Positions 7,773-63,215 of a stretch of DNA of 64,000 nt are shown here, piece by piece (position 1 is the first letter of the stretch; every line of letters begins with the position of its first letter). The translations under genes and the position numbers were made by a program. The stretch comes from Dehalococcoidia bacterium (lineage in GTDB: Bacteria; Chloroflexota; Dehalococcoidia; Bin125): contig JAJEBU010000126.1 in assembly GCA_022822375.1 (NCBI GenBank), positions 68,659-132,658 of the forward strand, given 5' to 3'. The notes beneath the pieces were generated by a model. It had not been told where the DNA came from and searched no databases. It saw nothing but the letters and a program-made list of their open reading frames with translations.

Positions 7773-10062
<2,290 letters not shown>

Positions 10063-12043: not shown

Positions 12044-12044
12044 A

Positions 12045-13659: not shown

Positions 13660-13800
13660 GTAGTGTTGAAATCTGGGTCCCGCGCGGCGGCCCGCCGTGA
13701 ACCCCGTCAGGTCCGAGAGGAAGCAGCGGTAAGCGGTTGTCAGGTCGGGTGACGCGGGAGTGCCTGGGTGGAGCCGGCTAGCGAAGGCAAGCTCATGCAA
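13660..13800 (+). ncRNA. ffs: Signal recognition particle RNA (4.5S/ffs-type; boundaries approximate)
   Basis: Contains the universally conserved SRP RNA domain IV sequence GUCAGGUCCGAGAGGAAGCAGC (GNRA tetraloop GAGA) at ~13705-13727. The following ...GGUGACGCGGGAGUGCCUGGGUG is colinear with E. coli 4.5S ...GAUGACGCGUGUGCCGGGAUG, and GUGAAC precedes the motif. It lies in a 424-bp gap with only short spurious ORFs. Confidence 0.65.
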
Positions 13801-13856
13801 CCGTTCGATCCTGGGTGCACGGCCGATACCGCGCCACAACGTCACGGACATTCCCG

Positions 13857-32335: not shown

Positions 32336-33268
32336 CTACTGTGGCGGTGGCGCTGTGACCTCGACCGATACGGCGATGATCCGCTCCGTGCCATAGACCG
32401 CGATCAGATCGAATGCGGCTGGGCTCAACTGCAGATCAGTGTTCGACGCTTCTGTCCCGCGTACGACCACGAGCGCCTCAGTGCCGACGACCGCCGCTTG
32501 TTCCTCATCGGTCAGCAGCGTGGCGCCTGGCAGACGCGTCAGACGCAGCGTCGTGCCAACTGGCCAGCGTGATGTGAAGACCGTCGCCGGCTCAGTGGGA
32601 TCGTAGGCCGCTCCGTCGCCGAGTTGGCGCGGAATGCCTGACGGAATCGGTTCCGCCGTGACCCGCTCGGCGGCGATCTCCGCGCCGTCGATCTGGGCCG
32701 GGACGACCGCCATATCGACGACCGTGGGCTGAATCTCCGAGACGGGGATGGACATCTCGGTGCTCTGCTGCTGCACAGACCCTGCTGTCGTCTCGGCTTG
32801 CTGCTCTTGCGCCACAGCCGCACCTTGCTCCGGGGCCGCTTGACGATCTTGCTCGGCAGACTCAGCCGCTGGCGATTCCTGTTCTTGCGACTGCGCTTCA
32901 GCGGTCTCAGGCGGTGTTGCCGCCGGTTCTGCTGCCGAGTCTGCGGCGGATTGTTCAGCCGCCCCGTCCTCGGCCGCCCCGTCCTCGGACGCCGCGGCGT
33001 CCGTCGCTGGCTCCGTCACGACCGCTGGCGAGTCGTCCTCCAGCAGTTCTGTGACTCCGAAGTAGACCGCGACCCCGATCCCGCCCAGGATGGCGAGCAC
33101 CGCCAGTCCGCTGATCATTCGCTTCAGCCTGGGGCCGATGAGTTGCCGCTCGTTGGGCAGCCGCAACCGCTCTCCGGAGTAGCGTCGGTAGTCGGCGGCG
33201 CCGCGCACGCGGATATGCGGGCTCGAGTAATCGCGCGGCCCGCCCTGATTCCGTGAGTACTGGCTCAT
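32336..33268 (-). CDS. Membrane-anchored protein with long acidic disordered region and C-terminal RlpA/DPBB-like domain (tentative)
   Basis: N-terminal cytoplasmic segment, one TM helix (LAVLAILGGIGVAVYFGV), ~120 aa Ala/Glu/Gln-rich low-complexity region, then a C-terminal ~100-aa block (...TLRLTRLPGATLL...ALVVVRGTEASNTDLQLSPAAFDLIA) weakly reminiscent of double-psi beta-barrel domains. Confidence 0.55.
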   Translation of the reverse strand: MSQYSRNQGGPRDYSSPHIRVRGAADYRRYSGERLRLPNERQLIGPRLKRMISGLAVLAILGGIGVAVYFGVTELLEDDSPAVVTEPATDAAASEDGAAEDGAAEQSAADSAAEPAATPPETAEAQSQEQESPAAESAEQDRQAAPEQGAAVAQEQQAETTAGSVQQQSTEMSIPVSEIQPTVVDMAVVPAQIDGAEIAAERVTAEPIPSGIPRQLGDGAAYDPTEPATVFTSRWPVGTTLRLTRLPGATLLTDEEQAAVVGTEALVVVRGTEASNTDLQLSPAAFDLIAVYGTERIIAVSVEVTAPPPQ

Positions 33269-33321
33269 GAACGCAGGTTATGCCATCTGCGTCCGTATGG
33301 TTGACTCAGTAGGATGAACGC

Positions 33322-33696
33322 ATGGCCGACCGAGTCTCGACCCGCCGAATCCGCTGCCCAAACTGCGATCAACGACTCGACGTTGGCGTGCCGCCCGAGC
33401 GCGATCGGCCGCGGCGCGTCGTGACGATGTGCAGGCAATGCCGCTACGACCTCGTCGTCTCCCGATCCGAGAAGAGCGGCGAACCGCTGCGCATTCGCGC
33501 CTGCATGCGCTGGGACGTGACCTGTCCGTACTGCGAACAGCCCACGGTCGCCCGCGTACCGCCCAAAGGTCTGCTGCGACGCAAGGAAACATCGCCGTGC
33601 GTCCATTGCCGCAAGCCGCTGATTGTCGAACGGCGCGAAGAGGGCCAACTCGTCCTGCGCGCGCACCGCGGGATCCTCGAAGGCAGCCTGCTCTGA
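33322..33696 (+). CDS. Cys-rich double zinc-ribbon protein (four CxxC pairs)
   Basis: CPNC...CRQC...CPYC...CVHC in 124 aa. Divergent from the preceding gene (54-bp spacer). Confidence 0.6.
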   Translation: MADRVSTRRIRCPNCDQRLDVGVPPERDRPRRVVTMCRQCRYDLVVSRSEKSGEPLRIRACMRWDVTCPYCEQPTVARVPPKGLLRRKETSPCVHCRKPLIVERREEGQLVLRAHRGILEGSLL

Positions 33697-33891
33697 CACC
33701 TCTGGCTGTCTTGCGCGCCATCTTGGTGTAACCGCCGTAACGCTCGGAGTACCAGTGCGCGACCAGCGCTGTCTGTCACGCTCGTTGGCGGCGCTTGTGC
33801 TAGTGACCAACGCTACTCACACGTCTACAGTGCAGGAATACCAATTCGCGGGCTCCGCCGACGGTCGGCGGGGCGCAGAGAGAGCGAGACC

Positions 33892-35049
33892 ATGAGCGAC
33901 TACGACCAGCGCGCCATCGAGATGCATCGGGAATGGGGCGGCAAGGTCGACTACGCGTCGAAGGTGACGGTCGAGAACCACGACGACCTCTCGGTTGTCT
34001 ACACGCCCGGTGTGGCGGCGCCCTGCCTCGAGATCGCCCGCGACCCATCGCTGGCGCGCGTGATGACCGGCGTCGGCAACCTCGTCGCCGTGATCACCGA
34101 CGGATCTGCCGTGCTCGGACTCGGCGACATCGGACCGCAGGCCGCGCTGCCAGTGATGGAGGGCAAGTGCGTCCTCTTCCGCTCGTTCGCCGGCGTGGAC
34201 GCGATCCCGATTGCGCTGTCGGTGCGCAGCGTCGATGAGATCTGCACCGCGATCGAGGCGATTGCGCCGTCGCTGGGCGGGATCAACCTTGAGGACATTT
34301 CCGCGCCGCGCTGTTTCGAGATCGAGCAACGCTTGCACGACTCGCTGGACATCCCGGTCATGCACGACGACCAGCACGGTACTGCCGTGGTGGCTCTGGC
34401 CGGTGTGATCAACGCCCTGCGCCTGACCAACCGCGACTTCAAGGATGTGCGGACCTCAATCCTGGGGGCCGGCGCCAGCGGCATCGCCTGCGGCGCCATC
34501 CTGCGCGAGATGGGCTGTGAGGACGTCGCGCTGATCGACTCCAAGGGCCTGCTCACCGTCGACCGCGAAGACCTCAACCCGTGGAAGCGCGAGGCCGCCG
34601 AGTGGTGCGGATTCCGCAACAACGCCGACGGCAGCATCCCGCAGACGTCCCAGGTGATGGAAGGGACCGACCTCTTCCTCGGGCTCGCCGGGCCGGGCCT
34701 GGTCACGGTCGCTGATGTCGCCTCGATGAACGACAACGCCATGGTCTTCGCGATGGCCAACCCCACGCCCGAGATCATGCCGGACGAGGCGGCCGAGGCA
34801 GGCGCGGCGATCGTTGCCACGGGACGCTCGGACTTTGCCAACCAGATCAACAACGCGCTCGGCTTCCCGGGCATGTTCCGCGGGCTGCTCGATGGCGGCA
34901 TTCCCAAGATCGAGGACGAGCACAAGATCGCCGCGGCGCAAGCCATCGCCGACTTCGTGACCGACCCCACGCCGGATCGGATCGTGCCGAGCATCTTCGA
35001 GGAAGGCCTCGCCTACAAGGTCGCCGACGCCGTCCAGGCCGTCGGATAG
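33892..35049 (+). CDS. NAD(P)-dependent malic enzyme (short, MaeB N-domain type)
   Basis: 385 aa: ...VYTPGVAAPC...DGSAVLGLGDIGP...VMHDDQHGTAVVALAG...ILGAGASGIA... are malic enzyme motifs. Confidence 0.85.
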   Translation: MSDYDQRAIEMHREWGGKVDYASKVTVENHDDLSVVYTPGVAAPCLEIARDPSLARVMTGVGNLVAVITDGSAVLGLGDIGPQAALPVMEGKCVLFRSFAGVDAIPIALSVRSVDEICTAIEAIAPSLGGINLEDISAPRCFEIEQRLHDSLDIPVMHDDQHGTAVVALAGVINALRLTNRDFKDVRTSILGAGASGIACGAILREMGCEDVALIDSKGLLTVDREDLNPWKREAAEWCGFRNNADGSIPQTSQVMEGTDLFLGLAGPGLVTVADVASMNDNAMVFAMANPTPEIMPDEAAEAGAAIVATGRSDFANQINNALGFPGMFRGLLDGGIPKIEDEHKIAAAQAIADFVTDPTPDRIVPSIFEEGLAYKVADAVQAVG

Positions 35050-35064
35050 GCGGCTAGGCCGCGC

Positions 35065-35991
35065 TTAGGCCGAGTCTGTCGCGCCGGTTCGCCGGTACAC
35101 GTCGAGCGCCTGCGCGATCGCCGCGCGGACGCCCAGCACCGGCTCATATTCCAGCGCCACGCGCGCACGCGAGTCGTCGATCAGGTGCGGCCGCCCCGTC
35201 ACGTCGACGTAGCCGTCCACGCCTTCCGGCTCCGGCAGCACCCATCCCGACAGTCGCAGCGTCCACAGCGCCCGCGACGCGAGATACGGCGCACTCCAGA
35301 ATCTCGCTTCGACGCCTTGCAGCTGGCACGACTCGCGAGCCAGCTCGCCCCACGTCGTGTGTGCAGATGTGGCGTGAAACACGTGATCAACCGCCTCATC
35401 GGAATGGATCAACATCGCCCAGACGGCGCGGCCGAGGTCGGCGCCGGCGAGGATGGAGATCGGCGCCTCGCCGCCCGCGACGAGCGCCGCGCGAGGCCGC
35501 GAGGTGAAGTGGCGCAGCAGCTGGAGCATCTGCCCGCCGCCCTCGGCGATCACCGGCGCCGCGCGCAGGATTGAGAGCGGCACGCGGCGTCGATAGGTGC
35601 GCGCGGCTCGCTCCGCCGCGACGCGGCTCTGCAACGCCGGCCCCAAGGGTCTCGGTACCCAGCTTTCGCTGACTGGCCAGGGCGGCAGGCGGCGCCCATA
35701 CGTCTCGGTCGTCGAGACCATCAACACCTGTGCCAGGTCTCGTTGCCGGCACGCGTCAAGCAACGACGTCGTCGAATGCACGTTGGCCTCGGCGTAGATC
35801 GCGGCTGGATGGCCGGGATCCGTCAGCGAAGCGGCGTGGACGACGTGGGTCGCGCGGTCGAGCGCTGATTGCAGCGCATCTGCGCTCGTGACGTCGAACG
35901 GCATGACGTCGACGGCGTGCCGCTCAAGCTCGCGACGTACCGCGAGACCAACAGGCTGATCGGCGCCGCTCAGGGCGATGCGCATGTCCAT
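35065..35991 (-). CDS. NAD-dependent epimerase/dehydratase-family (extended SDR) protein, divergent member
   Basis: Length and overall pattern of the extended-SDR Rossmann family (MDMRIALSGADQPVGLAV...). The glycine-rich motif is degenerate. Confidence 0.45.
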   Translation of the reverse strand: MDMRIALSGADQPVGLAVRRELERHAVDVMPFDVTSADALQSALDRATHVVHAASLTDPGHPAAIYAEANVHSTTSLLDACRQRDLAQVLMVSTTETYGRRLPPWPVSESWVPRPLGPALQSRVAAERAARTYRRRVPLSILRAAPVIAEGGGQMLQLLRHFTSRPRAALVAGGEAPISILAGADLGRAVWAMLIHSDEAVDHVFHATSAHTTWGELARESCQLQGVEARFWSAPYLASRALWTLRLSGWVLPEPEGVDGYVDVTGRPHLIDDSRARVALEYEPVLGVRAAIAQALDVYRRTGATDSA

Positions 35992-36086
35992 TGCTTGAGT
36001 CCCCGTCTGCCTGTGGCGGTGTTAGCCTCGCCCCATCACGACGTGATTCGAGCTGACTCAGAGCGTATTCGCTGCGGAGGCGCCCA

Positions 36087-36869
36087 ATGCCCATTCTCGA
36101 ACGACCCGGCTGCGACATCTACTACGAGGAGACGGGCGGCGGCCCGCCGATCATCTTCGCGCATGGCGCGGGAGGCAATCACCTCTCCTGGTGGCAGCAG
36201 ATACCGCTGTTCGCCAAGTCCTACCGCTGCGTTGCGTTCGATCATCGAGGCTGGGGCCGCAGCGTCCCGACCGGCGGACCGGGCCCCGCGGCCTTCGTCG
36301 ACGACCTGCTCGCGCTGATGGACGAGCTGCGGATTGAACGGGCGGCGCTGGTCGCGCAATCGATGGGCGGCTGGAGCTGCCTGGGCGCAGCGCTCAAAGC
36401 GCCCGAACGAGTGGCGGCGCTGGTCATGGCCGACACGCTGGGCGGACTGTTGACCGAGTCGATGCGGGAACCGTACGAAGTCGCCCGCGCGGCCGTCCGC
36501 GAGCAGGGTCTGGAGTCGCTCGCCTACGATCGCGGCCTGCGCGAACGTGACCCGGCGTTGGCCTTCCTCTACGAGGAGATCATGGCCCTCAATCCACCGC
36601 GCGATCCAGCCATGCTGAACACCCTGCGCGAGCAGACGCCGGATCCTGACGCCGTCGCGGCATTAACGATGCCCATCCTCTGGGTCGTGGGCGGGAACGA
36701 TCCAATCATGCCGCCGTCCTGCATGCGTCTGGCCGCCGAACTGGTCCCGGGATCGCAGTACTACGAGATTCCAGCGACCGGCCACAGCGTCTACTTCGAG
36801 CGGGCAACGGAGTTCAACGGCCAGCTGAACCGGTTCCTCGTCGATTCTGGATGGGGCACCGGCATCTAA
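36087..36869 (+). CDS. alpha/beta-fold hydrolase
   Basis: HG motif (FAHGAGGN), nucleophile elbow AQSMGGW, C-terminal His (ATGHSV). Confidence 0.8.
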   Translation: MPILERPGCDIYYEETGGGPPIIFAHGAGGNHLSWWQQIPLFAKSYRCVAFDHRGWGRSVPTGGPGPAAFVDDLLALMDELRIERAALVAQSMGGWSCLGAALKAPERVAALVMADTLGGLLTESMREPYEVARAAVREQGLESLAYDRGLRERDPALAFLYEEIMALNPPRDPAMLNTLREQTPDPDAVAALTMPILWVVGGNDPIMPPSCMRLAAELVPGSQYYEIPATGHSVYFERATEFNGQLNRFLVDSGWGTGI

Positions 36870-36874
36870 CTGGC

Positions 36875-38248
36875 TCAGTCCGGCCAGGTCCAGTCGATAC
36901 TGACCGCGCGCTGCAACGCGTCGAGCTGATAGCGCAGCGACGGATCCCAGAGCATGAAGCCGATCCCGCCGACCTCGGCGGTCGCTTCGATCTGTGCGTG
37001 AACGAAGTCCGCGTGGTAGGCCAGCCCGCGCGACTGGTAGTCGGTAAAGTCCTGTAGCCACGGACGAACCACTGCCGATCCGGGCTCGTCAATCAGTTCG
37101 ATCGTCGCCTGGACGTTTCGGCCGACCACCGCGCCGGGATGCGCGGGCGGATAGGCAAAGCCGAACGAGCCAGGCGTCCAACCGCTGGGATAAACCATCG
37201 GCGAGACGTAATCGAGATGCGGCGCGACGCCCGCCACCGACTGTCCGATGCCTTGGTCGTTGCCCGCCGTCGAGATGACACCAAAGGTGTCGAACGACAC
37301 CGCTAAGCCGACCTGATGCAAGGCGTCTCCGGCCTCCTGGGCAAATCTGTTGATCGTGGCGACCCGCTCGGCCTCGCTGAACTGGCTGCGTTCCAGCACG
37401 CTCTCGTATGGCAAGCGAACGTAGTCGTACTGAATTTCGTCGACGTAGCCAGCCGCGGCCATGCCGATTTCGATGTTGTAGCGGCGGGCCTCGAAGGAGA
37501 AGGGCGACGCCCAGCTGTTGCCGTTGCTGTCTCTGAATCGGCCGCCGCTGAGGTTGTGCAGAGAGTGCTGAGGGTGCCAGGCCGAGAACCAAGGGTCAAA
37601 GAACGTCACAATCCGACCGATGCGGTAGACGCCCTGCTCGCCCAGTTGCTCGAGGAAGCTGGTCGTTCTCGGGAAGGCGAACTGCGCGTCGGCCTTCATC
37701 ACGCGGGCAGTCTCGTTTGCGGCAAACGGGATGACCCGGCCGCCTTCGTCCTTCAGATCAACCACCACCGCGTTGATCAAGTCCCGCTCGATCAGGTCGC
37801 TGACGAAGTCCTGGACCTCCTGCTTCTCGATCTCAAGGAAGGGGACGAAGATCGCGCGCACCACGAGTTTGCGCAGCACGATCACCGATCGGTCTCGGTA
37901 GACCGGGCGCTGCACATTGTTGTAGCCCGGTTGCACGACGGTCAGTTGTCCAGTCCGCTCTTCCGCTGTGAACTCGAAGCGGCCGCTGGCGTCAGCGCGC
38001 ACCAGGCTGGTTCCAGTCGAGACGCGGGCGTGCGCCGCGGGCAGCAACCGCCCAGCCTTCCAGACGTAGACGCCACCGCTCAGCGGCGTGGTGAATGTGG
38101 TCGTTGACGAGGTGAGCGCTCGCAGCCCCGGCGCCCGATCAGACGCCGGGTCGTCGGCGGATACTCCGTGCAAGGCGCCCAGCGCGAACAGCGCCACAAC
38201 GGCCATCCCCAGAATCAGACTCCACAGCCTCGAGCGCGGGTCCAACAC
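36875..38248 (-). CDS. Secreted hypothetical protein, putative glycoside-hydrolase-like TIM-barrel (DUF4015-like)
   Basis: N-terminal signal/TM segment (LWSLILGMAVVALFALGALHG), then a ~400-aa domain with dispersed aromatic/acidic motifs (VVVDLKDEGGRV, YDYVRLPYES, FMLWDPS). Family assignment is tentative. Confidence 0.5.
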   Translation of the reverse strand: MLDPRSRLWSLILGMAVVALFALGALHGVSADDPASDRAPGLRALTSSTTTFTTPLSGGVYVWKAGRLLPAAHARVSTGTSLVRADASGRFEFTAEERTGQLTVVQPGYNNVQRPVYRDRSVIVLRKLVVRAIFVPFLEIEKQEVQDFVSDLIERDLINAVVVDLKDEGGRVIPFAANETARVMKADAQFAFPRTTSFLEQLGEQGVYRIGRIVTFFDPWFSAWHPQHSLHNLSGGRFRDSNGNSWASPFSFEARRYNIEIGMAAAGYVDEIQYDYVRLPYESVLERSQFSEAERVATINRFAQEAGDALHQVGLAVSFDTFGVISTAGNDQGIGQSVAGVAPHLDYVSPMVYPSGWTPGSFGFAYPPAHPGAVVGRNVQATIELIDEPGSAVVRPWLQDFTDYQSRGLAYHADFVHAQIEATAEVGGIGFMLWDPSLRYQLDALQRAVSIDWTWPD

Positions 38249-38351
38249 GAGTCGGCCTTTCGATCACGAAACTGTTGCGTCGAGCAACTCTACACTCCCT
38301 GCACAGTTTAAAGTTATGTCGAGGAGCGTCGGATGGCAAGTCCCGCGTCGA

Positions 38352-38702
38352 TCAAGGGTCAGCGTGCTCCTCGGCGGCCGCCTTGAGGTTGCGCAGCCCC
38401 TGCTCGGCCGACGCGTCGATCGCGCGCATGCCCCGACCAATGAGGAAGACGTTGCTCACACGCCAGCGCCAGCCGAGCGGGCGCGCGGTGTCGCTGATCG
38501 TGCAGCCGTTCGCTCGCGGACGCAGCTCATACGCGTGTTGGACGCGGAATCCCGCGCCCATGCGCACTTCAAGCAGCAACTGCCTCCCGCGCGACTCGGA
38601 GAGGACGACCGCCTGGGACTCATCCACGCCCAGCTGCGCCTCCGCACGCAGCAGCTCCCAGACATGGCCGATCGGCGCGTCGATCTCGACTGCTTCAATC
38701 AT
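38352..38702 (-). CDS. SRPBCC (START/Bet v1-like, polyketide cyclase/dehydrase-type) small lipid-binding protein
   Basis: 116 aa: MIEAVEIDAPIGHVWELL... is the typical N-terminus of activator-of-Hsp90/PKS-cyclase SRPBCC proteins. Confidence 0.6.
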   Translation of the reverse strand: MIEAVEIDAPIGHVWELLRAEAQLGVDESQAVVLSESRGRQLLLEVRMGAGFRVQHAYELRPRANGCTISDTARPLGWRWRVSNVFLIGRGMRAIDASAEQGLRNLKAAAEEHADP

Positions 38703-39288
38703 CCCAGGCCAACCGTTCGATCAACGCGCCAACCTCTTGCAGGTCAGCGCAGCGCGTGACGTGCTCGGGGTAACTCAGACCCATGTTGCGCGGCCAGGTC
38801 ATGAGCGCGACGTCGATGCCGGCGCGGGCCAGCAGCGCGCACGTTGCCGCGTCGTCATCGATGTGCAGCGATGCATCCCGGCCGCGCAGATACGCCTCTT
38901 TGTAACGGGGCGAACTGAGCGGTGACGCGTTCATGACCAGCTCGTCGATCGAGTCTGCGAAGCCGTGCCGCTCGAGCCAGGCGTTCGTCTGCGTGCGGCC
39001 GTGCTCGTGCCGCCCAGTGAGGACAATCACCCGCCCCGTCCGCGACGCGGCCCGGACGACCTCCAGCGCACCCGGTCTCGGCGGACGCAGCACATAGCGA
39101 ACGCGGTACCAAGTCGATTCCAGCAGACGATCCATGATGCCGCCCAACATGCCGGATGGCGTCGTCGAGATCGGCAGCTGCGTCGACGGGTCAGGCGCCA
39201 GCGACACATCGCGGTTGATCGCCGGATTCCATCCGAACGGCGGCTCGGCCAGGACGCCATCGAGGTCAAAGGACCAGAGGTGTGGCAT
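38695..39288 (-). CDS. HAD-like hydrolase/phosphatase
   Basis: HAD motif I FDLDGVL near the N-terminus (MPHLWSFDLDGVLAEPP). Start taken at the ATG of MPHLW; 8-nt overlap with the downstream SRPBCC gene. Confidence 0.6.
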   Translation of the reverse strand: MPHLWSFDLDGVLAEPPFGWNPAINRDVSLAPDPSTQLPISTTPSGMLGGIMDRLLESTWYRVRYVLRPPRPGALEVVRAASRTGRVIVLTGRHEHGRTQTNAWLERHGFADSIDELVMNASPLSSPRYKEAYLRGRDASLHIDDDAATCALLARAGIDVALMTWPRNMGLSYPEHVTRCADLQEVGALIERLAWDD

Positions 39289-39298
39289 GTCTCGACGG

Positions 39299-40276
39299 CT
39301 ACGCCCAGCCATGTTCGCGGTACCAGGCCATCGCTTCGCGCATCCCGTCGTTCAGGCTGCGCCGCGCACTCCAGCCGGTGTCGCGCTTGAGCGTTGAGGC
39401 GTCGCACAGCCACGCGCGCTGCCGCATTTCCACCACCCGAGTGCGATCCAACGTCGGCTCCGTGCCTGTCAGCTGCGCCCACCACTCCGAGCATCGGGCC
39501 GCGCCGTGAAAGACGCTCGCCGGCAGCGTGGGGATGACCAGTCGCTTGCCTGCCACCGACTGCAACTGGGCGAGCAGGTCATTCCAGGTGTACGGACCGC
39601 CCTCATCGCAGATGTGGTAGCGCACGACGCCTTCCAGGTCCGAGTTCAGGATCGCCGAAACTGCCTCCGCCAAGTCAGGACCGTAGATCGCGTCGACCAG
39701 ATTTGTCCCGTCGCCGAGTCTCACGGACAGCTTGCGTTGCGCCATCCAGAAGAAGGCCTGCAGCCCCGCATCGGCCGGACCGTAGATCATCGGCGGCCGC
39801 AGAATGGTGAGCTGCATCGTTCCGCGCTGTTCGAGGGCAGCCTCCTCGGAGGCGGCCTTGGAACGTCCGTATGCAGACACCGGATGCGGCGTCGTGTCCG
39901 GCGGTTCAGGTTCACGACCGGAAGCTGGACCTTGTGCGGCGATCGAGGAGATATGCAGGAACCGTTGCACGCCCGCTGCCGCCGCTGCGCTGGCGAGATT
40001 CGCCGTTCCCCTTCGGTTGACGCGCATGAAGTCATCTTGGTCGACCGCGCGCAACACCGCGGCCGAATGGACGACCGCTTCGACACCGACGCAAGCGGCC
40101 GTGAGCGACGCGGGCTCCATCAGGTCGCCCAAGACCCGCTCGTACTGCACATCTCGCACGTTCGAGTCATCGCTGGTCCGACGCATCAGCAGACGCACGT
40201 CGTGGCCGTCCGCATCGAGCTGCCGCGCGACGTGTCCGCCGACGAATCCGCTACCGCCGGTGACGAGGACTCGCAT
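39299..40276 (-). CDS. NAD-dependent epimerase/dehydratase-family reductase (CerR-like candidate)
   Basis: MRVLVTGGSGFVGGHVARQL... Rossmann GxxGxxG, and YGRSK catalytic Tyr-x3-Lys. ATG at 40276, 5 nt downstream of the AONS-family gene stop. Confidence 0.82.
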   Translation of the reverse strand: MRVLVTGGSGFVGGHVARQLDADGHDVRLLMRRTSDDSNVRDVQYERVLGDLMEPASLTAACVGVEAVVHSAAVLRAVDQDDFMRVNRRGTANLASAAAAAGVQRFLHISSIAAQGPASGREPEPPDTTPHPVSAYGRSKAASEEAALEQRGTMQLTILRPPMIYGPADAGLQAFFWMAQRKLSVRLGDGTNLVDAIYGPDLAEAVSAILNSDLEGVVRYHICDEGGPYTWNDLLAQLQSVAGKRLVIPTLPASVFHGAARCSEWWAQLTGTEPTLDRTRVVEMRQRAWLCDASTLKRDTGWSARRSLNDGMREAMAWYREHGWA

Positions 40277-40280
40277 GGCG

Positions 40281-41585
40281 CTACGAGATGACGCCCTGCC
40301 GGCGGCCGGCTTCTTCGAAGATCTGCAGTGCCCGTTCGAGCTGTTCGTCGGTGTGCGTGGCGATGTAGGAGGTGCGCAGGATGGCCTGCCCGCGCGGGAC
40401 GGCGGGCGCGATGACGGCGTTGGTGTAGACCCCGTGATCGAGCAGGTCGCGCCAGAACACTGCGGTGCGCACCTCATCGCCGACGCGGATCGGGATGATC
40501 GGCGTGGCAGAGTTTGCGACGTCGAAACCGAGCGCGTCCAACTCTCGCCGCATTCGCGCGCCGATCTCTTGCACTCGCTGAACCCGCCAGTTTTCCTCAT
40601 CGATCAGCCGCAGTGCCGTCAACGCCGCCGCCGCGGAGGCCGGCGGCAGCGCGGCCGTGAACAGCATCGGACGCGAGAAGTGGCGGATGTACTCGATGAC
40701 CTTGTGCGGACCGGCGCAGAATCCGCCCACGGACGCCAACGTCTTGCTGAACGTGCCGATCGTCAGATCGTCAGGCTCATCGAGCCCGAAGTGAGATCGC
40801 GTGCCGCGTCCAGTCGGTCCGACCGTACCGATTGCGTGCGCGTCGTCGACCAGCATCCGCGTCTGGTGTTTGCGGCAGACTTCGCGCAGTTCGGGCAGCG
40901 GCGCGAGGTCGCCGCCCATCGAATAGGCGCCATCGATCAGCACGAGCCGTGCCTGTTCCGGGTTGAGATTGCTGAGGACCCGATCGAGGTGCTCGGGATC
41001 GTTGTGCTGAAAGCGGGTGTACTTACCCAGCGCCAGCCCGGCGGCGTCGTAGATGGATGCATGCACGTCACGATCCAGGACAGAGATACCGTGTCGATCA
41101 ATCAGCGCCGAGACCGCGCCCAGATTGGCCAGATAGCCCGTCGAGAAGACGATGGCCGTTTCCATGCCGAGGAACTCGGCGAGCTCCTCCTCGAGCGTGA
41201 GATGGACCGGACTCGTCCCGTTCAGCAGGCGCGAACCGGTCATGGAGGGGCCGTATCGGTCGAGCGCGTCGTGCGCCGCCTCGAGCACCTTTGGGTGGCG
41301 TGTGAGCCCGAGATAGTTGTTCGAGCCGAGCATGATCACGCGTTTGCCATCGACGACGGCCTCAGGGCCGTCGTTGACCTCGATCGGCTGAAAGAAGGGA
41401 TAGAGGCCGGCGGCGCGTGCCTGGTCTGCGAGCTGGAAGTGGGAGATGCGATCAAACAGGTCGGGCGAGCCGACCTCGCGTTGATGGCCGTCTATTTCCT
41501 CCATGCGGAGTCCGGCGGCCTGCGCCAGATCGGTCAGCGACGGACTCCCTGAATCCGCGCCCGCGTCGGAATGGGCCTGCGTCAT
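40281..41585 (-). CDS. alpha-oxoamine synthase-family PLP enzyme (serine palmitoyltransferase / 8-amino-7-oxononanoate synthase-like)
   Basis: MLGSNNYLGL..., ...AIVFSTGYLANLGA..., PLP lysine in GTFSKTLASVGGF. 434 aa. Confidence 0.85.
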   Translation of the reverse strand: MTQAHSDAGADSGSPSLTDLAQAAGLRMEEIDGHQREVGSPDLFDRISHFQLADQARAAGLYPFFQPIEVNDGPEAVVDGKRVIMLGSNNYLGLTRHPKVLEAAHDALDRYGPSMTGSRLLNGTSPVHLTLEEELAEFLGMETAIVFSTGYLANLGAVSALIDRHGISVLDRDVHASIYDAAGLALGKYTRFQHNDPEHLDRVLSNLNPEQARLVLIDGAYSMGGDLAPLPELREVCRKHQTRMLVDDAHAIGTVGPTGRGTRSHFGLDEPDDLTIGTFSKTLASVGGFCAGPHKVIEYIRHFSRPMLFTAALPPASAAAALTALRLIDEENWRVQRVQEIGARMRRELDALGFDVANSATPIIPIRVGDEVRTAVFWRDLLDHGVYTNAVIAPAVPRGQAILRTSYIATHTDEQLERALQIFEEAGRRQGVIS

Positions 41586-41793
41586 CGCGATCTCCCATCA
41601 CGCCGGTCCGCATCTGCGACGGCAGGCGTGTCGCGCGTGTTTCCAGCGAGTGTACGCGAGATATCCGCTGAGACCATGTCGTTGGCGTCGCAGCGTTTGG
41701 TCGGGAGGTGGTTTACGGGAATCGGCTTGCGCGCTGCTTATGACGTGTGGCTAGAGTGGAATCACTGCCTGCGTTTGGGAAAGAACACGCGCC

Positions 41794-42582
41794 ATGATGA
41801 GACTCAGCATCAAACCAGCGGCCGCGCTCGCCGCGGCTGCCTTCCTTCTGCTCTTGATTCTGGACCTGATCTGGCCGGGACACGGAGTGTGGTTGCTGGT
41901 CTTCGGCATCCTCGTCGGCTTCGCAGCGGCCGGTATGTGGTGGCGAGATCGATTGATCATGCTCGCCGCCTCCCAGCCTCAGGCGCCGCGGCCAATCTCG
42001 TCCGTCAGCGCCTACGGCATCAGCGGAGCGGGTCTGCAGATCACGCCGCCGAGAGATCAGCAGGGCGTGCCCCTCTCACTGGTGCTCGCGCCGATCGCCG
42101 CCTTGTCGATCTTGCTCTTCATCGGCGGCGCGATCGGATCGTCGGACTCCCAGCTCGTGCAGGAAGTCGAACTACAACAGACGGAGGTCGCGGCCATTGA
42201 CCGCAGCCGCGACGGTGAGTCGACCGCGTTGCAGCCGAGTCCCCCCGCCACAACGACTTCAGCTCCCAGCGCCAGCGCGCAGAATGCGGTCGCGAGCGTA
42301 GCCCAGACACAACAGGATCAGGCGCCCGCACCCGTGCGGCCCATCGTCGTCGCAACGCCGACCGCGGCCACCGCGGCCCAGGAAGCTCAAGCAGCCGCAC
42401 CCGTGCCGGAGTCGATCCGCACGGTGGAGTACACCGTCGAAGAGGGCGACACGCTCTACGAGATCGCCGTGCAGCACGACGCCACGGTCGAGGCGATCAT
42501 GGACATCAACGGGCTCGACAGCCAGAGCTACATTCACCCCGGCGACGTCTTGCGGATTCCGATCAACGACGACGAGTCCTAG
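41794..42582 (+). CDS. LysM-domain membrane protein
   Basis: N-terminal TM helices, Pro/Ala/Thr-rich linker, C-terminal LysM (YTVEEGDTLYEIAVQHDATVEAIMDINGL...IHPGDVLRIP). Confidence 0.75.
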   Translation: MMRLSIKPAAALAAAAFLLLLILDLIWPGHGVWLLVFGILVGFAAAGMWWRDRLIMLAASQPQAPRPISSVSAYGISGAGLQITPPRDQQGVPLSLVLAPIAALSILLFIGGAIGSSDSQLVQEVELQQTEVAAIDRSRDGESTALQPSPPATTTSAPSASAQNAVASVAQTQQDQAPAPVRPIVVATPTAATAAQEAQAAAPVPESIRTVEYTVEEGDTLYEIAVQHDATVEAIMDINGLDSQSYIHPGDVLRIPINDDES

Positions 42583-42588
42583 CAGGAG

Positions 42589-43515
42589 CTAGCCGCTTGC
42601 ATCCAGCGGGACGTGCAGTCCGCCGCTGACCACCTGCGCGGCGCGCGCTTGTGCGTCGGCGTGGTAGGAACTGCGCACCATCGGGCCTGACTCCACGTGT
42701 CGGAAGCCCAACGCGAGCGCCTCCGCGCGGATGTCCTCGAACTCCTCGGGTGGTGCGTAACGCACGACTGGCAGGTGCTTCGACGACGGCTGCAAGTATT
42801 GTCCGACGGTCAGCAGTTCAACGCGCGACGCGCGCAGATCGCGCAGCAGTTGCGACACCTCGTCCCGCTCCTCGCCCAGTCCCAGCATGAATCCGGTCTT
42901 GGTCGGAATATGCGGCTGCCATTCCGAAGCGCGCTGCAGCAGTTCTAGCGAGCGCTCGTAACGCGCCTGGAAGCGCACGCGTGGGTAAAGCCGTTGGACG
43001 GTCTCGACGTTGTGGTTCAGCACAGTCGGCGCGGCACGCAGCACGGTGTCCAGGGCGTTCCAGTTGCCGACAAAGTCCGGGATCAGCACTTCCACCGATG
43101 TCTGCGGCCGCCGACGGCGAATCAGCTCGATGCACGAGGCGAAGATCTGAGCCCCACCGTCGGCAGTGTCGTCTCGATTGACTGAGGTGATGACCACGTA
43201 GGACAAGCCCAGCCGATCGACCGCCGCGGCCAGGCGCGCGGGCTCGGCCCAATCAAGGGGCTGCGGCTTGCCAGACGTGACAGCGCAAAATCCGCACGCG
43301 CGCGTGCAGGTATCGCCCAGAATCATGAATGTCGCGGTGCCGCGGTTGAAGCACTCGCCGATGTTCGGGCAGCGCGCCTCTTGGCAGACCGTGTTGAGCG
43401 TCTCGTCCTGCAACAGCTGGACGATCTGCCCGTAGCGCTCTCCACCTGGAAACTGGGCCCGAATCCACTGCGGCTTGCGCTCGCGCGTTCGCGGCATCAA
43501 TCGCCTCCCCGCCAT
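42589..43515 (-). CDS. lipA: Lipoyl synthase
   Basis: Radical-SAM CxxxCxxC (CTRACGFC) plus the N-terminal auxiliary cluster Cys motif (CQEARCPNIGEC). Confidence 0.92.
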   Translation of the reverse strand: MAGRRLMPRTRERKPQWIRAQFPGGERYGQIVQLLQDETLNTVCQEARCPNIGECFNRGTATFMILGDTCTRACGFCAVTSGKPQPLDWAEPARLAAAVDRLGLSYVVITSVNRDDTADGGAQIFASCIELIRRRRPQTSVEVLIPDFVGNWNALDTVLRAAPTVLNHNVETVQRLYPRVRFQARYERSLELLQRASEWQPHIPTKTGFMLGLGEERDEVSQLLRDLRASRVELLTVGQYLQPSSKHLPVVRYAPPEEFEDIRAEALALGFRHVESGPMVRSSYHADAQARAAQVVSGGLHVPLDASG

Positions 43516-44216
43516 CGAGCCATCGAGAGCCTCAGGCCGAACACGTCGCTGAAGCTTGCCGCAAGGATCGGCGCGCAGGCCTCCACCGAGGCATGTCGGC
43601 CCGCCTCAATCGACAGCGACGTCGCCGATGCGCCTTCGATCCCGCAGGCGCGAATGTCATCAAACCAGGCGAGGTCGACATCACAGTTCAGCGCCAGACC
43701 GTGTCGGCTGACTCCGCCCTGGATGCGGACGCCCACGCTGGCGAGCTTGCGCTCGCCGATCCAGAGGCCGGGCCGGCCGGACACGGCAGCTGCCTCGATG
43801 CCAAACTGCGCGACGGTCAAGCGCGCCGCCTCTTCGAGTCCGCGCACGTAGGATGCGATGCCGATCTGCCGCTCCCGAACCCTCAGGATCGGCCAGACAA
43901 TGAGCTGGCCGGGGCCATGAAACGTGATGTCTCCGCCGCGATCGGTATCGATGACGGGCGCCGACAGCGGTCGCAGCACGTGTTCGCGGCCGCCTCGACG
44001 CCCCTGTGTGTAGACCGGATCATGCTCCAGCAGCACCACAACTTCGGGCGCGGACCCGGCGGCGACGGCCGCGGCGCGGCTCTGCTGCCAGCTGTTCGCG
44101 TCTGCGTAGGGCACGCGTCCCGCATGCGTGATCTGGACTATCTGCGAGCGCTCGACGCCCCGCACAGATACCGGCTCGCGGCTGGTGCTCGTCGTCGCCA
44201 GCGTCTGCGTGCCCAC
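43497..44216 (-). CDS. lipB: Octanoyltransferase (lipoyl(octanoyl) transferase)
   Basis: ...ITFHGPGQLIVWPIL..., the ...RKLASVG... catalytic Lys region, and LALNCDVDLAWF. Overlaps the lipA start. Confidence 0.88.
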   Translation of the reverse strand: MGTQTLATTSTSREPVSVRGVERSQIVQITHAGRVPYADANSWQQSRAAAVAAGSAPEVVVLLEHDPVYTQGRRGGREHVLRPLSAPVIDTDRGGDITFHGPGQLIVWPILRVRERQIGIASYVRGLEEAARLTVAQFGIEAAAVSGRPGLWIGERKLASVGVRIQGGVSRHGLALNCDVDLAWFDDIRACGIEGASATSLSIEAGRHASVEACAPILAASFSDVFGLRLSMARWRGGD

Positions 44217-44323
44217 GTTGCCTCCCCACTCTGCCTCCCCGTGTTTTGCCTCTGTTTCAGTCTATCCAGCGACCGAAGCGCGGGAACGGTGCCGGTGCGA
44301 ATCTTGAGTAGACTGAATCCACG

Positions 44324-47020
44324 ATGACGACCTCTGAGTCTCCCTGGTTTTCAGCGCACCCCCGCGCGACAGACCCATTGGGCGCCGACGACTGGCTGGA
44401 AACGAACGACTGGATCGACTCCTTGCGCGATGTCGCACGGCGGCGCGGGCCCGACCGCGTCTCGCGGCTGCTGCAGTCACTCCAGATCGAGGCCCAGCGC
44501 GGCGGCATCCGCCTGCCCGTGACATCGCAGACGCCGTATGTCAACACGATCCCCATTGAGCGGCAACCCGCCTATCCCGGCGACCTCGAGCTCGAACGCA
44601 GAATCAAGTCGATCATCCGTTGGAACGCGATGGCGATGGTCGTCGAGGCGAACCAGAACAACCACGGCATCGGTGGGCACATTTCGACCTACGCGTCGGC
44701 GGCGACGCTGTACGAGGTGGGATTCAACCACTTTTTCCGCGGCCAGGACCACCCCAGCGGCGGAGACCTGGTCTACTTCCAGGGGCATTCGGCACCAGGC
44801 ATCTATGCGCGCGGTTATGTCGAGCGCCGACTCGAGCCAGCCCAGCTGCACAAGTTTCGCCAGGAACTCTCCGGCGGACTTCCCTCGTATCCCCATCCGT
44901 GGTTGATGGACCACTATTGGCAGTTCCCCACGGTCTCGATGGGACTGGGGCCGATCCAGGCCATCTACCAGGCGCGATTCATCCGCTACCTCGAGAACCG
45001 CGACCTGTTGCCGCCCACGGATCGCAAGGTCTGGTGCTTCCTCGGCGACGGCGAGACGGACGAACCGGAGTCACTCGGTTCGATCGCGCTCGCATCGCGC
45101 GAAGAGCTGGACAACCTGATCTTCGTCGTCAACTGCAACTTGCAGCGGCTCGATGGTCCGGTGCGCGGCAACGGACAGATCATTCAGGAACTCGAAGCCG
45201 TCTTCCGCGGCGTCGGCTGGAATGTGATCAAGGTGATCTGGGGATCGGAGTGGGACCAGCTGCTCGCGCGAGACGATGAGGGGCTGCTCGTTCAGCGCAT
45301 GGGCGAAGTGGTCGACGGCGAGTATCAGAAGTACACGGTGGCCGGCGGCGGATACATTCGCAAGCACTTCTGGGGCGTTGATCCGCGCCTGCTGAGGATG
45401 GTCGATGACCTCTCCGACGACGCCCTTTGGCGGATGCGTCTGGGCGGACATGACCCGCTCAAAGTCCACGCAGCCTTCCGCGCAGCCAGCGACCATCGCG
45501 GCGCGCCGACGGTCATCCTGGCTCGGACGATCAAGGGTTACGGCCTCGGAGAGGCGGGCGAAGGCCGCAACATCACGCATCAGCAGAAGGAGCTCAACGA
45601 ACGGGAGCTGATGCAGTTCCGCGACCGCTTCGCAATCCCCCTCTCCGACGAAGAGGTGATCGGTGCTCCGCTCTATCGTCCCTCGCCCGACAGTCGAGAG
45701 GCGTTCTACATGTCTGAGCGCCAGACATCATTGGGCGGGCCGGTGCCCGAACGGCGTTCGCCGCCGTCGCCGTTGACCGCGCCGCCAGACGACGCGTTCC
45801 AGGAGTTTCATGAGGGCACGGGCGATCGTGAGGCGTCCACCACAATGGGATTCGTGCGCATGCTGAGCCGGCTCATGCGCGACCGTGAGATCGGCCGTCG
45901 CATCGTCCCGATCGTGCCGGACGAGTCGCGCACCTTCGGCATGGAAGGCATGTTTCGCGAGTTTGGCATCTATGCGTCGACCGGCCAGTTGTACGAACCG
46001 GTCGATTCGGACCGCCTGCTCTTCTACAAGGAATCGCGCGACGGCCAGATTCTTGAAGAGGGCATCACCGAGGCCGGCGCGATGTCGTCGTTCATCGCCG
46101 GCGGTACCGCCTACTCGACGCTGAAGGCGCCGATGATCCCGTTCTTCATCTTCTACTCGATGTTTGGCTTGCAGCGCATTGGCGATCTCGCATTCGCCGC
46201 CGGCGACGCGAGGGCGCGCGGCTTCCTGATCGGCGCCACCGCGGGCCGCACGACCCTGAACGGCGAGGGCCTCCAGCATCAGGATGGACACAGCCACCTC
46301 CTGGCGTCGTCGATTCCCAATCTGGTCTCCTACGATCCGGCGTACACCTACGAGATCGCGGTCATTGTGCAAGAGGGCTTCAGGCGCATGCACGATGAGG
46401 ACGAGAGCGTGTTCTTCTATGTCACCGTCGAGAACGAGGCGTACGCGCAGCCGCCGATGCCCGATTCGGAGCTGGTGCGCGAGGGGATCCTGCGCGGCAT
46501 TTACCAGTTGGCCCCGTGCGATGAACCGCAAGTTCGGCTGCTCGGCAGCGGACCGATCCTGAATGAAGTGCGCCGCGCCCGAGAGATGCTGGAGCACGAT
46601 TACGGCGTTCGCGCCGATGTCTGGTCGGTCACGTCCTACACCGAGCTGCGGCGCGAGGCGCTGCGTACCGACCGCTGGAACCGCATGCATCCGCTGGAAG
46701 AACCGCGCCGTTCCTGGCTGGAGCGTTCGCTGGGAACATCGAGCGCGCCGATCATCGCGGCGAGCGACTACGTCGCAACGCTGCCGGATATGGTCGCCCG
46801 CTGGCTGCCAGGTCCGCTGACGGCGCTGGGCACCGATGGCTTCGGTCGTTCAGACACGCGCGAGGCCCTGCGCGACTTCTTCGAAGTCGACGCGAACTCT
46901 GTGGTCTGGTCGGCCTTGAGCGCACTGGCGCGGCGCGATGAGATCGATGGAGACACGCTGTTGCGCGCGCGCGACACGCTCGGCATCGACCCCGAGCGCC
47001 CCGATCCGATGTTGCAGTAG
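44324..47020 (+). CDS. aceE: Pyruvate dehydrogenase E1 component (homodimeric AceE type)
   Basis: 898 aa. N-terminal ...GGHISTYASAATLYEVGFNHFFRG and the ThDP-binding GDGETDEPES region. Confidence 0.92.
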   Translation: MTTSESPWFSAHPRATDPLGADDWLETNDWIDSLRDVARRRGPDRVSRLLQSLQIEAQRGGIRLPVTSQTPYVNTIPIERQPAYPGDLELERRIKSIIRWNAMAMVVEANQNNHGIGGHISTYASAATLYEVGFNHFFRGQDHPSGGDLVYFQGHSAPGIYARGYVERRLEPAQLHKFRQELSGGLPSYPHPWLMDHYWQFPTVSMGLGPIQAIYQARFIRYLENRDLLPPTDRKVWCFLGDGETDEPESLGSIALASREELDNLIFVVNCNLQRLDGPVRGNGQIIQELEAVFRGVGWNVIKVIWGSEWDQLLARDDEGLLVQRMGEVVDGEYQKYTVAGGGYIRKHFWGVDPRLLRMVDDLSDDALWRMRLGGHDPLKVHAAFRAASDHRGAPTVILARTIKGYGLGEAGEGRNITHQQKELNERELMQFRDRFAIPLSDEEVIGAPLYRPSPDSREAFYMSERQTSLGGPVPERRSPPSPLTAPPDDAFQEFHEGTGDREASTTMGFVRMLSRLMRDREIGRRIVPIVPDESRTFGMEGMFREFGIYASTGQLYEPVDSDRLLFYKESRDGQILEEGITEAGAMSSFIAGGTAYSTLKAPMIPFFIFYSMFGLQRIGDLAFAAGDARARGFLIGATAGRTTLNGEGLQHQDGHSHLLASSIPNLVSYDPAYTYEIAVIVQEGFRRMHDEDESVFFYVTVENEAYAQPPMPDSELVREGILRGIYQLAPCDEPQVRLLGSGPILNEVRRAREMLEHDYGVRADVWSVTSYTELRREALRTDRWNRMHPLEEPRRSWLERSLGTSSAPIIAASDYVATLPDMVARWLPGPLTALGTDGFGRSDTREALRDFFEVDANSVVWSALSALARRDEIDGDTLLRARDTLGIDPERPDPMLQ

Positions 47021-61928: not shown

Positions 61929-62633
61929 GTGGGCCGATTCGAGCCATTGCCAACCGACCCGTATGAACAACCGCCGGGCGCGCGGCGCTTTGGGGCGATC
62001 TGCGCGGCCTGCCGCGGTGACACGCAGCTGGGCACTCGCTTCTGCACCAACTGCGGCGGCCTGCGCGACGACGCCGAGCGCGGACACACCGTCCGCTATG
62101 CGGCCTCAAAGTGGATGCGTCTGTTTGCCCGCCTGGCTGATTTGCTGCTGGTCGCCGGGATGGCCATCGTGGTCTACTTCCTGCTCGACGCGGCAGGCGC
62201 GATTGAGATCGACCTGGCGGACTCGAGCAATCTGGAGCTGAGCGATCTCAACGTCAGCTCGTTGATCGCGACGGGCATCTGGTTTCTCTGGTTCGCTGTA
62301 GTCGCGCCGCGCGGTCAGACGCCGGGTAAACAGCTGCTGCGTATGCGGATCATCATGGCCGACGGCTCTGACGCGCCGACATCGCTGAACTGGATGCGCG
62401 AAGGGCTGTTTCAGTTCTTCGCGGTGGTCCCATCGCTGGTCGCGGAGCCCATTATGTCTCCTGCTGAGTGGCTGACCGCCATTGTCAGCCTGGCCCCGTT
62501 TGTGATGCTGATGGATGCCGCGTTCATCTTCGCCGGCTCGGACAAGCAGACGGTGCATGACCGAATCTTCCGCACATTGGTCGTGCGCATTCAGCGTGTG
62601 CCCCAGCACAGCGCCGAGCTGCGCGCCCTATGA
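61929..62633 (+). CDS. Zinc-ribbon + RDD-family membrane protein, tandem paralog 1
   Basis: N-terminal CAACRGD...CTNCGG zinc ribbon, then RDD domain (RLFARLADLLLVAG...APRGQTPGKQLLRMRI...). GTG start. Confidence 0.75.
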   Translation: MGRFEPLPTDPYEQPPGARRFGAICAACRGDTQLGTRFCTNCGGLRDDAERGHTVRYAASKWMRLFARLADLLLVAGMAIVVYFLLDAAGAIEIDLADSSNLELSDLNVSSLIATGIWFLWFAVVAPRGQTPGKQLLRMRIIMADGSDAPTSLNWMREGLFQFFAVVPSLVAEPIMSPAEWLTAIVSLAPFVMLMDAAFIFAGSDKQTVHDRIFRTLVVRIQRVPQHSAELRAL

Positions 62634-63178: not shown

Positions 63179-63215
63179 TCGGGCCGAGCGACTAGCCTCG
63201 CCACGGAGGTGTCGG

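Follow-up and report, generated by a model that had tools for sequence, protein, structure and literature searches.

Does a compact group of genes in an uncultured Dehalococcoidia lineage direct the synthesis of a sphingolipid-type lipid? The question is raised by four minus-strand genes at positions 38352-41585 of a 64-kb stretch of contig JAJEBU010000126.1 (assembly GCA_022822375.1), the whole of which is referred to here as the window. All four are genuine genes, and they follow one another in the order alpha-oxoamine synthase (AONS), extended short-chain dehydrogenase/reductase (SDR), HAD phosphatase and small protein:

40281-41585, minus strand: AONS, an Spt-like alpha-oxoamine synthase and pyridoxal 5'-phosphate (PLP) enzyme, 434 aa
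39299-40276, minus strand: CerR/HpnA-like extended SDR, a reductase, 325 aa
38695-39288, minus strand: HAD-superfamily phosphatase of a narrow, uncharacterised family, 197 aa (alternative upstream ATG at 39312)
38352-38702, minus strand: small SRPBCC-fold protein, 116 aa

Judged from the sequence, it is moderately probable that these genes are co-transcribed and form an operon for a long-chain-base or amino-alcohol lipid of the sphingolipid type. The junctions, read directly from the DNA, are tight. A 4-nt gap separates the AONS stop codon from the SDR start (TAG CGCC ATG), the true start of the SDR being MRVLVTGG at 40276 and not that of the longer open reading frame (ORF) from 40600. The SDR stop and the HAD start are 10 nt apart, or would overlap by 14 nt were the HAD gene to begin at 39312; the ATG at 39288 is favoured because the orthologues are about 192 aa long. 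The HAD and small-protein genes overlap by 8 nt (ATGATTGA), and this overlap spans the HAD stop codon. The first-pass annotation of this DNA, which described the genes as packed with 5-nt and 8-nt overlaps or gaps, was therefore approximately right. A promoter and terminator scan of 36500-42000 and an Rfam scan of 33000-45000 gave nothing informative, with no promoter-like or terminator-like site and no Rfam element between the four genes. None of the four proteins has a signal peptide.

A scan of one genome per species returned 43 related loci with AONS proteins 67-98% identical to that of the window. The four genes stand in identical order in 39 of these, and contig ends truncate three of the four remaining loci; such an arrangement is far beyond chance. 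The order is retained down to 67% identity in the AONS and 34-40% identity in the SRPBCC protein, and the SDR lies directly after the AONS in every one of the 42 related loci that extend past the AONS gene. Two divergent lineages (L092 and L101) retain the SDR, the HAD gene, the small-protein gene and, further downstream, genes for a DUF4015 protein and a second SDR that are described below; in L092 the AONS is directly upstream, while the contig of L101 begins inside the SDR gene, so that its AONS is not visible. In that same L101 contig, one called ORF (P0293, 433 aa, 484-1785) runs from the C-terminal part of the SDR into the HAD protein, and given that both ends look frameshifted and that the assembly is a long-read one, this is more likely to be a sequencing artefact than a natural fusion.

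The first enzyme is, on its residues and scores, of the serine palmitoyltransferase (SPT) type and not a BioF or Kbl. Its place among the AONS-family PLP enzymes, initially read from the motif GTFSKT, is confirmed by the PLP-lysine of that motif (K281) and by a Pfam Aminotran_1_2 match at 1.6e-56. The NCBIfam models rank in the order SPT-CFB (432 bits), SPT-beta (399), bioF (360), Kbl (339), SPT-alpha (338) and CqsA (215). Among solved structures the best relative is the SPT of S. multivorum (PDB 8guh, 3a2b) at 345 bits, followed by the Sphingomonas SPTs (about 301), the Thermus AONS/KBL (7poa, 272), E. coli Kbl (237), BioF (215), a cysteate acyltransferase (28eh, 210) and CqsA (134). The alignment with the S. 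multivorum SPT has no gaps across residues 6-385 (380 residues), and the paper describing that structure (PMC10196870) supplied the residues that bind PLP and the carboxylate and hydroxyl groups of serine or line the acyl wall; the AONS matches it at nearly every one of them. H175, D247 and H250 of the AONS align to H138, D210 and H213 of the S. multivorum SPT, the His/Asp/His triad around PLP, and in the numbering of the latter the two proteins are identical at N52, Y54, G80, S81, R82, N85, H138, S185, D210, A212, H213, T241, S243, K244, F272 and A274. The aromatic acyl-wall positions 25/27/28 are likewise conserved, with differences nearby at A79T, S53N, F83L, M271L and S273T. At GSR80-82, N85, A212, FSK242-244, A274 and aromatic 27/28, the AONS and all members of its clade are in the SPT state, positions at which E. 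coli and Phaeobacter Kbl and E. coli BioF differ.

Neighbour-joining (NJ) trees were built with E. coli Kbl and BioF, Phaeobacter Kbl, three structural SPTs, the Parabacteroides SPT and the AONS proteins of the gene clusters discussed below. In these trees, which are distance-based, have three outgroup sequences and leave out the cysteate acyltransferase and Thermus AONS/KBL references, the Dehalococcoidia AONS proteins form a clade with 100% bootstrap that lies nested between the SPTs of Proteobacteria and those of Bacteroidota, Kbl and BioF falling outside. A bootstrap of 88% unites all sequences except Kbl and BioF, and one of 85% unites the clade with the S. multivorum SPT to the exclusion of the Sphingomonas SPT and Kbl. 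Phylogenetic placement, which the first-pass annotation had suggested as a check, accordingly puts the AONS inside the SPT radiation and not with BioF or Kbl, in line with its SPT-state residues.

Residues 1-42 of the AONS form an acidic, clade-specific N-terminal extension of about 40 aa with a conserved stretch (…EEIDG…SPDLF…). It falls outside the region aligned to the solved SPTs and is absent from the AONS proteins of Anaerolineae and of more distant phyla, where matches begin at query residues 32-43.

Public annotations of the gene and its relatives are generic ('8-amino-7-oxononanoate synthase', 'PLP-dependent aminotransferase'), and the former label raises the possibility that the AONS is a BioF or Kbl-type enzyme and that the SDR is an SDR-type threonine dehydrogenase, a class that occurs as a partner of Kbl, or else serves some unrelated purpose. 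The BioF and Kbl models do still score 340-360 bits and some AONS enzymes are promiscuous, the Thermus AONS/KBL at 272 bits being a case in point. However, this is the least probable of the explanations weighed here, for three reasons: first, the scores fall short of the equivalog cut-offs of both models (360 against 426 for bioF, 339 against 460 for Kbl) and both rank below SPT-CFB and SPT-beta. Second, the diagnostic residues are in the SPT state, and Kbl and BioF lie outside the clade in the NJ trees. Third, there is no SDR-type threonine dehydrogenase among the 60 PDB matches of the SDR, and tblastn with E. coli BioA, BioB and Tdh found no bioA, bioB or tdh homologue in the 64-kb window, which extends the earlier remark that no such genes are adjacent. 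Two specific identities were tried and rejected: BioF, on its score, its position as tree outgroup and the absence of bioA and bioB from the window; and the pairing of an SDR-type threonine dehydrogenase with Kbl, on the lack of such a dehydrogenase among the 60 PDB matches, AONS residues that are not Kbl-like and the absence of an MDR-type Tdh from the window.

With the AONS taken as SPT-type, the identity of the second enzyme becomes the next part of the question. The SDR carries GGSGFVG at 7-13 (GxxGxxG) and YGRSK at 136-140 (YxxxK) and matches the Pfam families Epimerase (2e-36) and 3Beta_HSD (5e-26), so that the initial description as an epimerase/dehydratase-family protein with YxxxK stands. 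Among the NCBIfam models it scores best with HpnA (156 bits) and OleD (118 bits), both of them lipid-acting, and reaches 63 bits with GalE. It was also compared with gene clusters in which an AONS homologue (43-51% identity) is followed by a GNAT-like gene of about 375 aa and then by an SDR. This order was found in Gemmatimonadota, Krumholzibacteriia and other metagenome-assembled genomes (MAGs), and also on a Streptomyces plasmid (L083) and a Rubrobacter plasmid (L084). The GNAT of these clusters has a 40% identical counterpart in a plasmid cluster of Roseomonas mucosa (L086), which comprises SPT, an acyl carrier protein (ACP), a fatty acyl-AMP ligase, an SDR, LptF/G paralogues and a sterol-desaturase-family gene, a content which matches the proteobacterial sphingolipid locus of the literature (PMC11087976).

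Over its full length the window's SDR shares 30-38% identity with the cluster SDRs of Streptomyces, Rubrobacter, Roseomonas and Gemmatimonadota, a level comparable to the identity of the cluster SDRs among themselves. These proteins are its best matches outside its own clade (136-189 bits, with the best PDB entry at 129 bits), and in an NJ tree its clade sits among them, although a group that holds this SDR and the cluster SDRs but not 3wj7, NSDHL and 6wjb has a bootstrap of only 56%. In this comparison the Roseomonas mucosa plasmid cluster stood in for Caulobacter as the proteobacterial reference. A bacterial NDUFA9-like protein groups with the Roseomonas SDR in the tree, which echoes the published homology of CerR and NDUFA9. 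Given that the cluster SDRs are the best matches but that the bootstrap is 56%, membership of the CerR family is no more than likely. The CerR-like identity first proposed for this protein is accordingly upheld as regards its resemblance to the cluster SDRs and its linkage to an Spt-type gene, and is weaker as regards the family itself. The accompanying check on the reductase came out in the same direction: its closest relatives are cluster SDRs and HpnA/OleD-type models and not sugar-nucleotide epimerases.

The third gene encodes what is, on its motifs and model, very probably an active phosphatase. Motif I (FDLDGVL, D8/D10), motif II (T91), motif III (K130) and motif IV (D144-D146) are invariant in 38 orthologues, and the AlphaFold model has a Rossmannoid fold with a pLDDT of 91.7. 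The best Foldseek matches are 5'(3')-deoxyribonucleotidases and generic HAD phosphatases (E 3e-6), and a search of the PDB by sequence returned nothing meaningful (two matches at E 0.3-0.7). All orthologues show weak LNS2_PITM matches, and many show similarly weak matches to Acid_phosphat_B (HAD-IIIB) and the PNKP phosphatase. The family is narrow, with 420 of 1.84 billion representatives matching at E<=1e-3. The HAD-like phosphatase seen in FDLDGVL by the first-pass annotation is thus borne out by the four invariant motifs, the model and Foldseek. Its further suggestion that the enzyme acts on a phosphorylated sphingoid base is not: nothing ties the protein to such a substrate, its fold neighbours are deoxyribonucleotidase-type or generic, and its distant homologues lie in unrelated, partly glycan-related contexts.

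The fourth protein, at 116 aa, is shorter than typical SRPBCC members, and neither a significant Pfam match from the single sequence nor a PDB match by sequence was obtained. Its fold nevertheless emerges from three sources. The AlphaFold model, of moderate quality (pLDDT 77), has the layout beta-alpha-beta4-alpha-alpha; the top Foldseek matches are all SRPBCC proteins, namely MSMEG_5634 (TMq 0.67), Rv2186c and polyketide ARO/CYC, with a probability of 1.0 and TMq of 0.55-0.67 at E values of only about 4e-3; and PF10604 matches 26 of 29 orthologues, below the gathering score, with a best E of 2.6e-6. Only 47 homologues were found, all at least 58% identical. The helix-grip pocket of the model suits a hydrophobic ligand. 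The SRPBCC fold originally assigned to this protein is supported by all three lines, whereas the label of START-type lipid binder fits in its fold only, the protein being nearer to small polyketide-cyclase-like proteins than to CERT-type START domains.

This resemblance has a bearing on a different reading of the locus, in which the operon makes a small diffusible alpha-amino-ketone or alpha-hydroxyketone signal of the CqsA/LqsA kind, or some other non-membrane natural product, from an acyl thioester and an amino acid. CAI-1-type autoinducers are made by such a pairing of an AONS and a dehydrogenase, clusters for polyketides and natural products often contain SRPBCC proteins, ARO/CYC enzymes are among the top Foldseek matches here, and no ceramide synthase is linked to the genes. 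Such a product is nonetheless very unlikely. The CqsA model scores 215 bits against 432 for SPT and the CqsA structures 134 against 345, the acyl-wall residues of the S. multivorum SPT are conserved in the AONS, and no sensor kinase, polyketide synthase (PKS) or nonribosomal peptide synthetase (NRPS) is present in the window.

The two accessory genes also raise the possibility that the locus is two unrelated modules that happen to be adjacent, the AONS and SDR making a long-chain base and the HAD protein, the SRPBCC protein and the downstream DUF4015 protein serving a cell-envelope or glycan process. Profile hidden Markov models (HMMs) detected 43 HAD ORFs and 40 SRPBCC ORFs (window included), all within the loci of this clade, so that among the loci examined the two genes adjoin an AONS only here. 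Distant relatives of the HAD protein stand beside Glyco_hydro_cc and DUF4012 genes, GH88-like genes or NTP-transferase genes, DUF4015 is a glycosyl-hydrolase-like domain, and the distance from the SDR to the HAD gene is not constant among relatives, reaching about 360-600 nt in L002 and L028. A division of this kind is unlikely, albeit the most serious competitor of the operon reading. In the window the SDR and HAD genes are 10 nt apart, the HAD and SRPBCC genes overlap by 8 nt, and nothing resembling a promoter or terminator lies between the genes; the order SDR, HAD, SRPBCC is found in every sublineage, L092 and L101 included; and the contexts of the distant HAD homologues are heterogeneous, without a consistent partner.

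Several observations weigh against an operon for a sphingolipid-type lipid. The AONS is under every NCBIfam SPT equivalog cut-off (SPT-CFB 432 against 640, SPT-beta 399 against 500, SPT-alpha 338 against 670); these cut-offs are narrow, since the AONS of a Gemmatimonadota GNAT/SDR cluster also misses that of SPT-CFB (518 against 640). The AONS trees carry limited weight, being distance-based with few outgroups, and the 56% bootstrap of the reductase group has been noted. No bCerS-like GNAT was found in the 64-kb window by tblastn with the Gemmatimonadota, Roseomonas and P. veronii YghO homologues, which agrees with and widens the earlier statement that none is seen in the operon, and the tblastn search with the Gemmatimonadota homologue was equally empty within 10 kb in some 40 related loci. 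An ACP and a fatty acyl-AMP ligase are likewise absent from the window, as judged by tblastn with Roseomonas queries, and a phosphopantetheine motif scan was also empty. The profile HMMs found the HAD and SRPBCC genes in no other Spt-type cluster examined, and the distant HAD homologues adjoin glycosyl-hydrolase-like, DUF4012, NTP-transferase or DNA-glycosylase genes and never an AONS. Finally, the whole block from the LysM gene upstream of the operon to the malic enzyme gene downstream is syntenic in the clade, and conserved order alone is therefore weak evidence for a shared function; the close packing of the four genes carries more weight.

What would such an operon do? The AONS and reductase steps are drawn from homology, signature residues and adjacency. 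In the first, for which the grounds are good, the SPT-family enzyme would condense an amino acid with a long-chain acyl-CoA or acyl-ACP, releasing CO2 and giving a 3-keto long-chain base; the amino acid is most likely L-serine, with L-alanine or glycine as possible substitutes. In the second, proposed from homology and adjacency, the CerR/HpnA-type SDR would reduce the 3-keto group with NAD(P)H to give a sphinganine-type base. Given that the proteins lack signal peptides and that no ceramide-synthase gene is linked, this reduction is probably cytoplasmic and may precede N-acylation. A third step is speculative: the hydrophobic pocket of the SRPBCC protein might carry or shield the lipid intermediate between the soluble enzymes, and the HAD phosphatase might take the phosphate off a phosphorylated intermediate or head-group precursor. 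It is a matter of inference what these two proteins do, which amino acid and acyl donor are used and what becomes of the amine, and a free sphingoid base as the product is a guess.

Some deeper-branching relatives point to what may follow. A PAP2_3 gene lies directly upstream of the AONS in L092 (4855-5643) and is also present in L037, L039 and L040 (about 9080-9820), and a PAP2 gene follows the second SDR gene in L092 (12352-13119) and L101; unlike these relatives, the window has neither. The flanking position of these genes suggests a later head-group or phosphate-transfer step at the membrane, and in those lineages a phosphate head group may be gained or lost through PAP2-family membrane enzymes. 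The only NCBIfam match of PAP2_3, to phosphoinositol dihydroceramide synthase, is very weak at 24 bits, and a PDB sequence search with the L092 protein found no match, so that this single NCBIfam match is the tie to ceramide phosphotransferases.

How the operon relates to known systems can be considered from several directions. The bacterial ceramide pathway, defined by Spt, bCerS and CerR, was described in Caulobacter crescentus (Stankeviciute et al. 2022, as cited in PMC11087976 and PMC11334938). The window shares with the AONS-GNAT-SDR clusters a homologous AONS that nests in the SPT radiation and, adjoining it, a homologous extended SDR, and its SDR resembles that of the Roseomonas cluster in having HpnA and OleD as its best NCBIfam matches. 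Unlike the Spt-bCerS-CerR clusters, it has no bCerS-like GNAT, ACP or acyl-AMP ligase, and HAD and SRPBCC genes come after the reductase instead. The Caulobacter CerR is periplasmic (PMC11087976), whereas the window's SDR lacks a signal peptide and its host lineage belongs to the Chloroflexota; and where in Caulobacter acylation comes first and reduction is periplasmic, the order proposed here is a cytoplasmic reduction, possibly before N-acylation. The operon is best regarded as a variant form of the clusters known for bacterial sphingolipid synthesis, with an Spt and CerR-type core, no linked bCerS and two clade-specific accessory genes. The S. multivorum SPT, although the best solved relative of the AONS, differs from it in that the window's protein has the N-terminal extension of about 40 aa and lies under the SPT-CFB cut-off.

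The sulfonolipid (capnine) pathway offers a parallel in which an AONS joins an amino acid to a fatty acyl thioester, an NAD(P)H reductase then acts on the ketone and the base is formed without a ceramide synthase. It departs from the present case in that the cysteate acyltransferase scores 210 bits to the AONS against 345 for SPT and in that there is no cysteate synthase in the window; the capnine reductase, moreover, is a classical and not an extended SDR. Kbl-Tdh and BioF have in common with the window's AONS the fold and the PLP chemistry, and are set apart from it by their signature residues, lower scores, position outside the clade and missing partner genes. Within the phylum, Spt-like genes have been predicted in 218 Chloroflexota MAGs from the Black Sea, mainly Anaerolineae (Ding et al. 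2024, PMC11334938). Anaerolineae AONS proteins are 52-55% identical to the window's and lie with it in an SPT-type clade, yet the Anaerolineae AONS loci examined have housekeeping neighbours only (QueG, SerRS, MiaA) and no adjacent reductase, in contrast to the tight four-gene operon of the Dehalococcoidia. Among the papers searched, none links Dehalococcoidia with serine palmitoyltransferase.

The host lineage has no cultured members. The window's AONS is 98-99% identical to proteins of uncultured Dehalococcoidia and Chloroflexota MAGs, and the related genomes come from the MAG series SB06xx_bin, PNGco_C_bin, IRC and RHO, which a published table lists among sponge-symbiont MAGs; an association of the lineage with marine sponges is therefore likely, as far as the names of the series indicate. 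This raises the further possibility, bolder than the operon reading itself, that these apparently sponge-associated Dehalococcoidia make long-chain amino alcohols (sphingoid or 1-deoxysphingoid bases), in free form or with unconventional modifications, by a route that bypasses ceramide synthase. The HAD protein and the SRPBCC carrier would then stand in for bCerS, for example in the handling of a long-chain base that is phosphorylated as an intermediate, and some of the amino-alcohol lipids isolated from sponges would be of bacterial origin. This scenario is doubtful.

Bacterial sphingolipid synthesis has been elucidated only recently, and against that background an operon of the proposed kind would keep the first and last enzymes (Spt and CerR type) and have the linked acyltransferase swapped for a phosphatase and a lipid-pocket protein. 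Were the reading of a sphingolipid-type operon correct, such chemistry would extend to the Dehalococcoidia, heterologous expression could draw on a compact set of two to four genes, the host or symbiont origin of sponge long-chain amino alcohols would become testable, and the generic public annotations of the first gene could be corrected. The finding is not categorically new; it is a concrete, testable lead on long-chain-base lipids in an uncultured and probably sponge-associated lineage.

Two genes downstream of the operon recur in the relatives, and their membership of the pathway is uncertain:

36875-38248, minus strand: DUF4015 protein, secreted or membrane-anchored, putatively glycosyl-hydrolase-like, 457 aa (Pfam DUF4015 1.4e-75)
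35065-35991, minus strand: second extended SDR, termed SDR2, 308 aa (Pfam Epimerase 3.9e-14, the match running from profile position 41 on)

The DUF4015 gene lies 103 nt downstream of the SRPBCC gene and keeps its collinear place in every complete related locus, the deep-branching L037, L040, L092 and L101 among them, while SDR2 is kept near the cluster in all sublineages and falls among the cluster SDRs in the SDR tree, on a long branch. The glycine-rich NAD motif of SDR2 is degenerate in the window (SGADQPVG) and in L028 (TGAERSPG), and is retained in the deep-branching L037 (GACDFIGG); its sequence suggests that cofactor binding may have been lost in the window's sublineage.

Four of the clusters used for comparison show features of their own. 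In the Roseomonas mucosa cluster (L086, NZ_CP025188.1, 22826-23983), a gene labelled 'dATP pyrophosphohydrolase' is 36-40% identical to the GNAT-like genes of Spt-type clusters; on this similarity the label is probably wrong, and the gene likely encodes a bCerS-type acyltransferase. In one Gemmatimonadota locus (L073, 12377-12718) the SDR that follows the AONS and GNAT genes is shortened to 113 aa and is succeeded by an Era-like GTPase gene; with a full-length copy in the close relative L072, the short form may be a pseudogene or an assembly error. On the Rubrobacter radiotolerans plasmid (L084) an LTA-synthase/sulfatase-family membrane protein (10449-12518) comes after the AONS-GNAT-SDR cluster, and about 3 kb further stands an annotated SRPBCC protein (13369-13851) that the HMM of the window's small protein does not detect. 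The AONS-GNAT-epimerase cluster of the Streptomyces plasmid (L083) runs by overlapping genes into a stand-alone condensation-domain protein (10223-11470), a hint that the product may be modified further, by acylation or with a peptidyl group.

The window has a G+C of 62-69% throughout, and housekeeping genes make up its remainder. Downstream stand the DUF4015 gene, an alpha/beta hydrolase gene on the opposite strand, SDR2 and the malic enzyme gene; upstream, a divergent LysM gene is followed by lipA, lipB and the genes for pyruvate dehydrogenase E1 and E2. The LysM-domain protein (41794-42582, plus strand) has an N-terminal membrane segment and a long low-complexity linker, and its position is kept in most relatives, L092 included. 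Near the far end of the window (61929-63950, plus strand) three genes for RDD-family membrane proteins stand in a row, the first two with cysteine-rich, zinc-ribbon-like N-termini.

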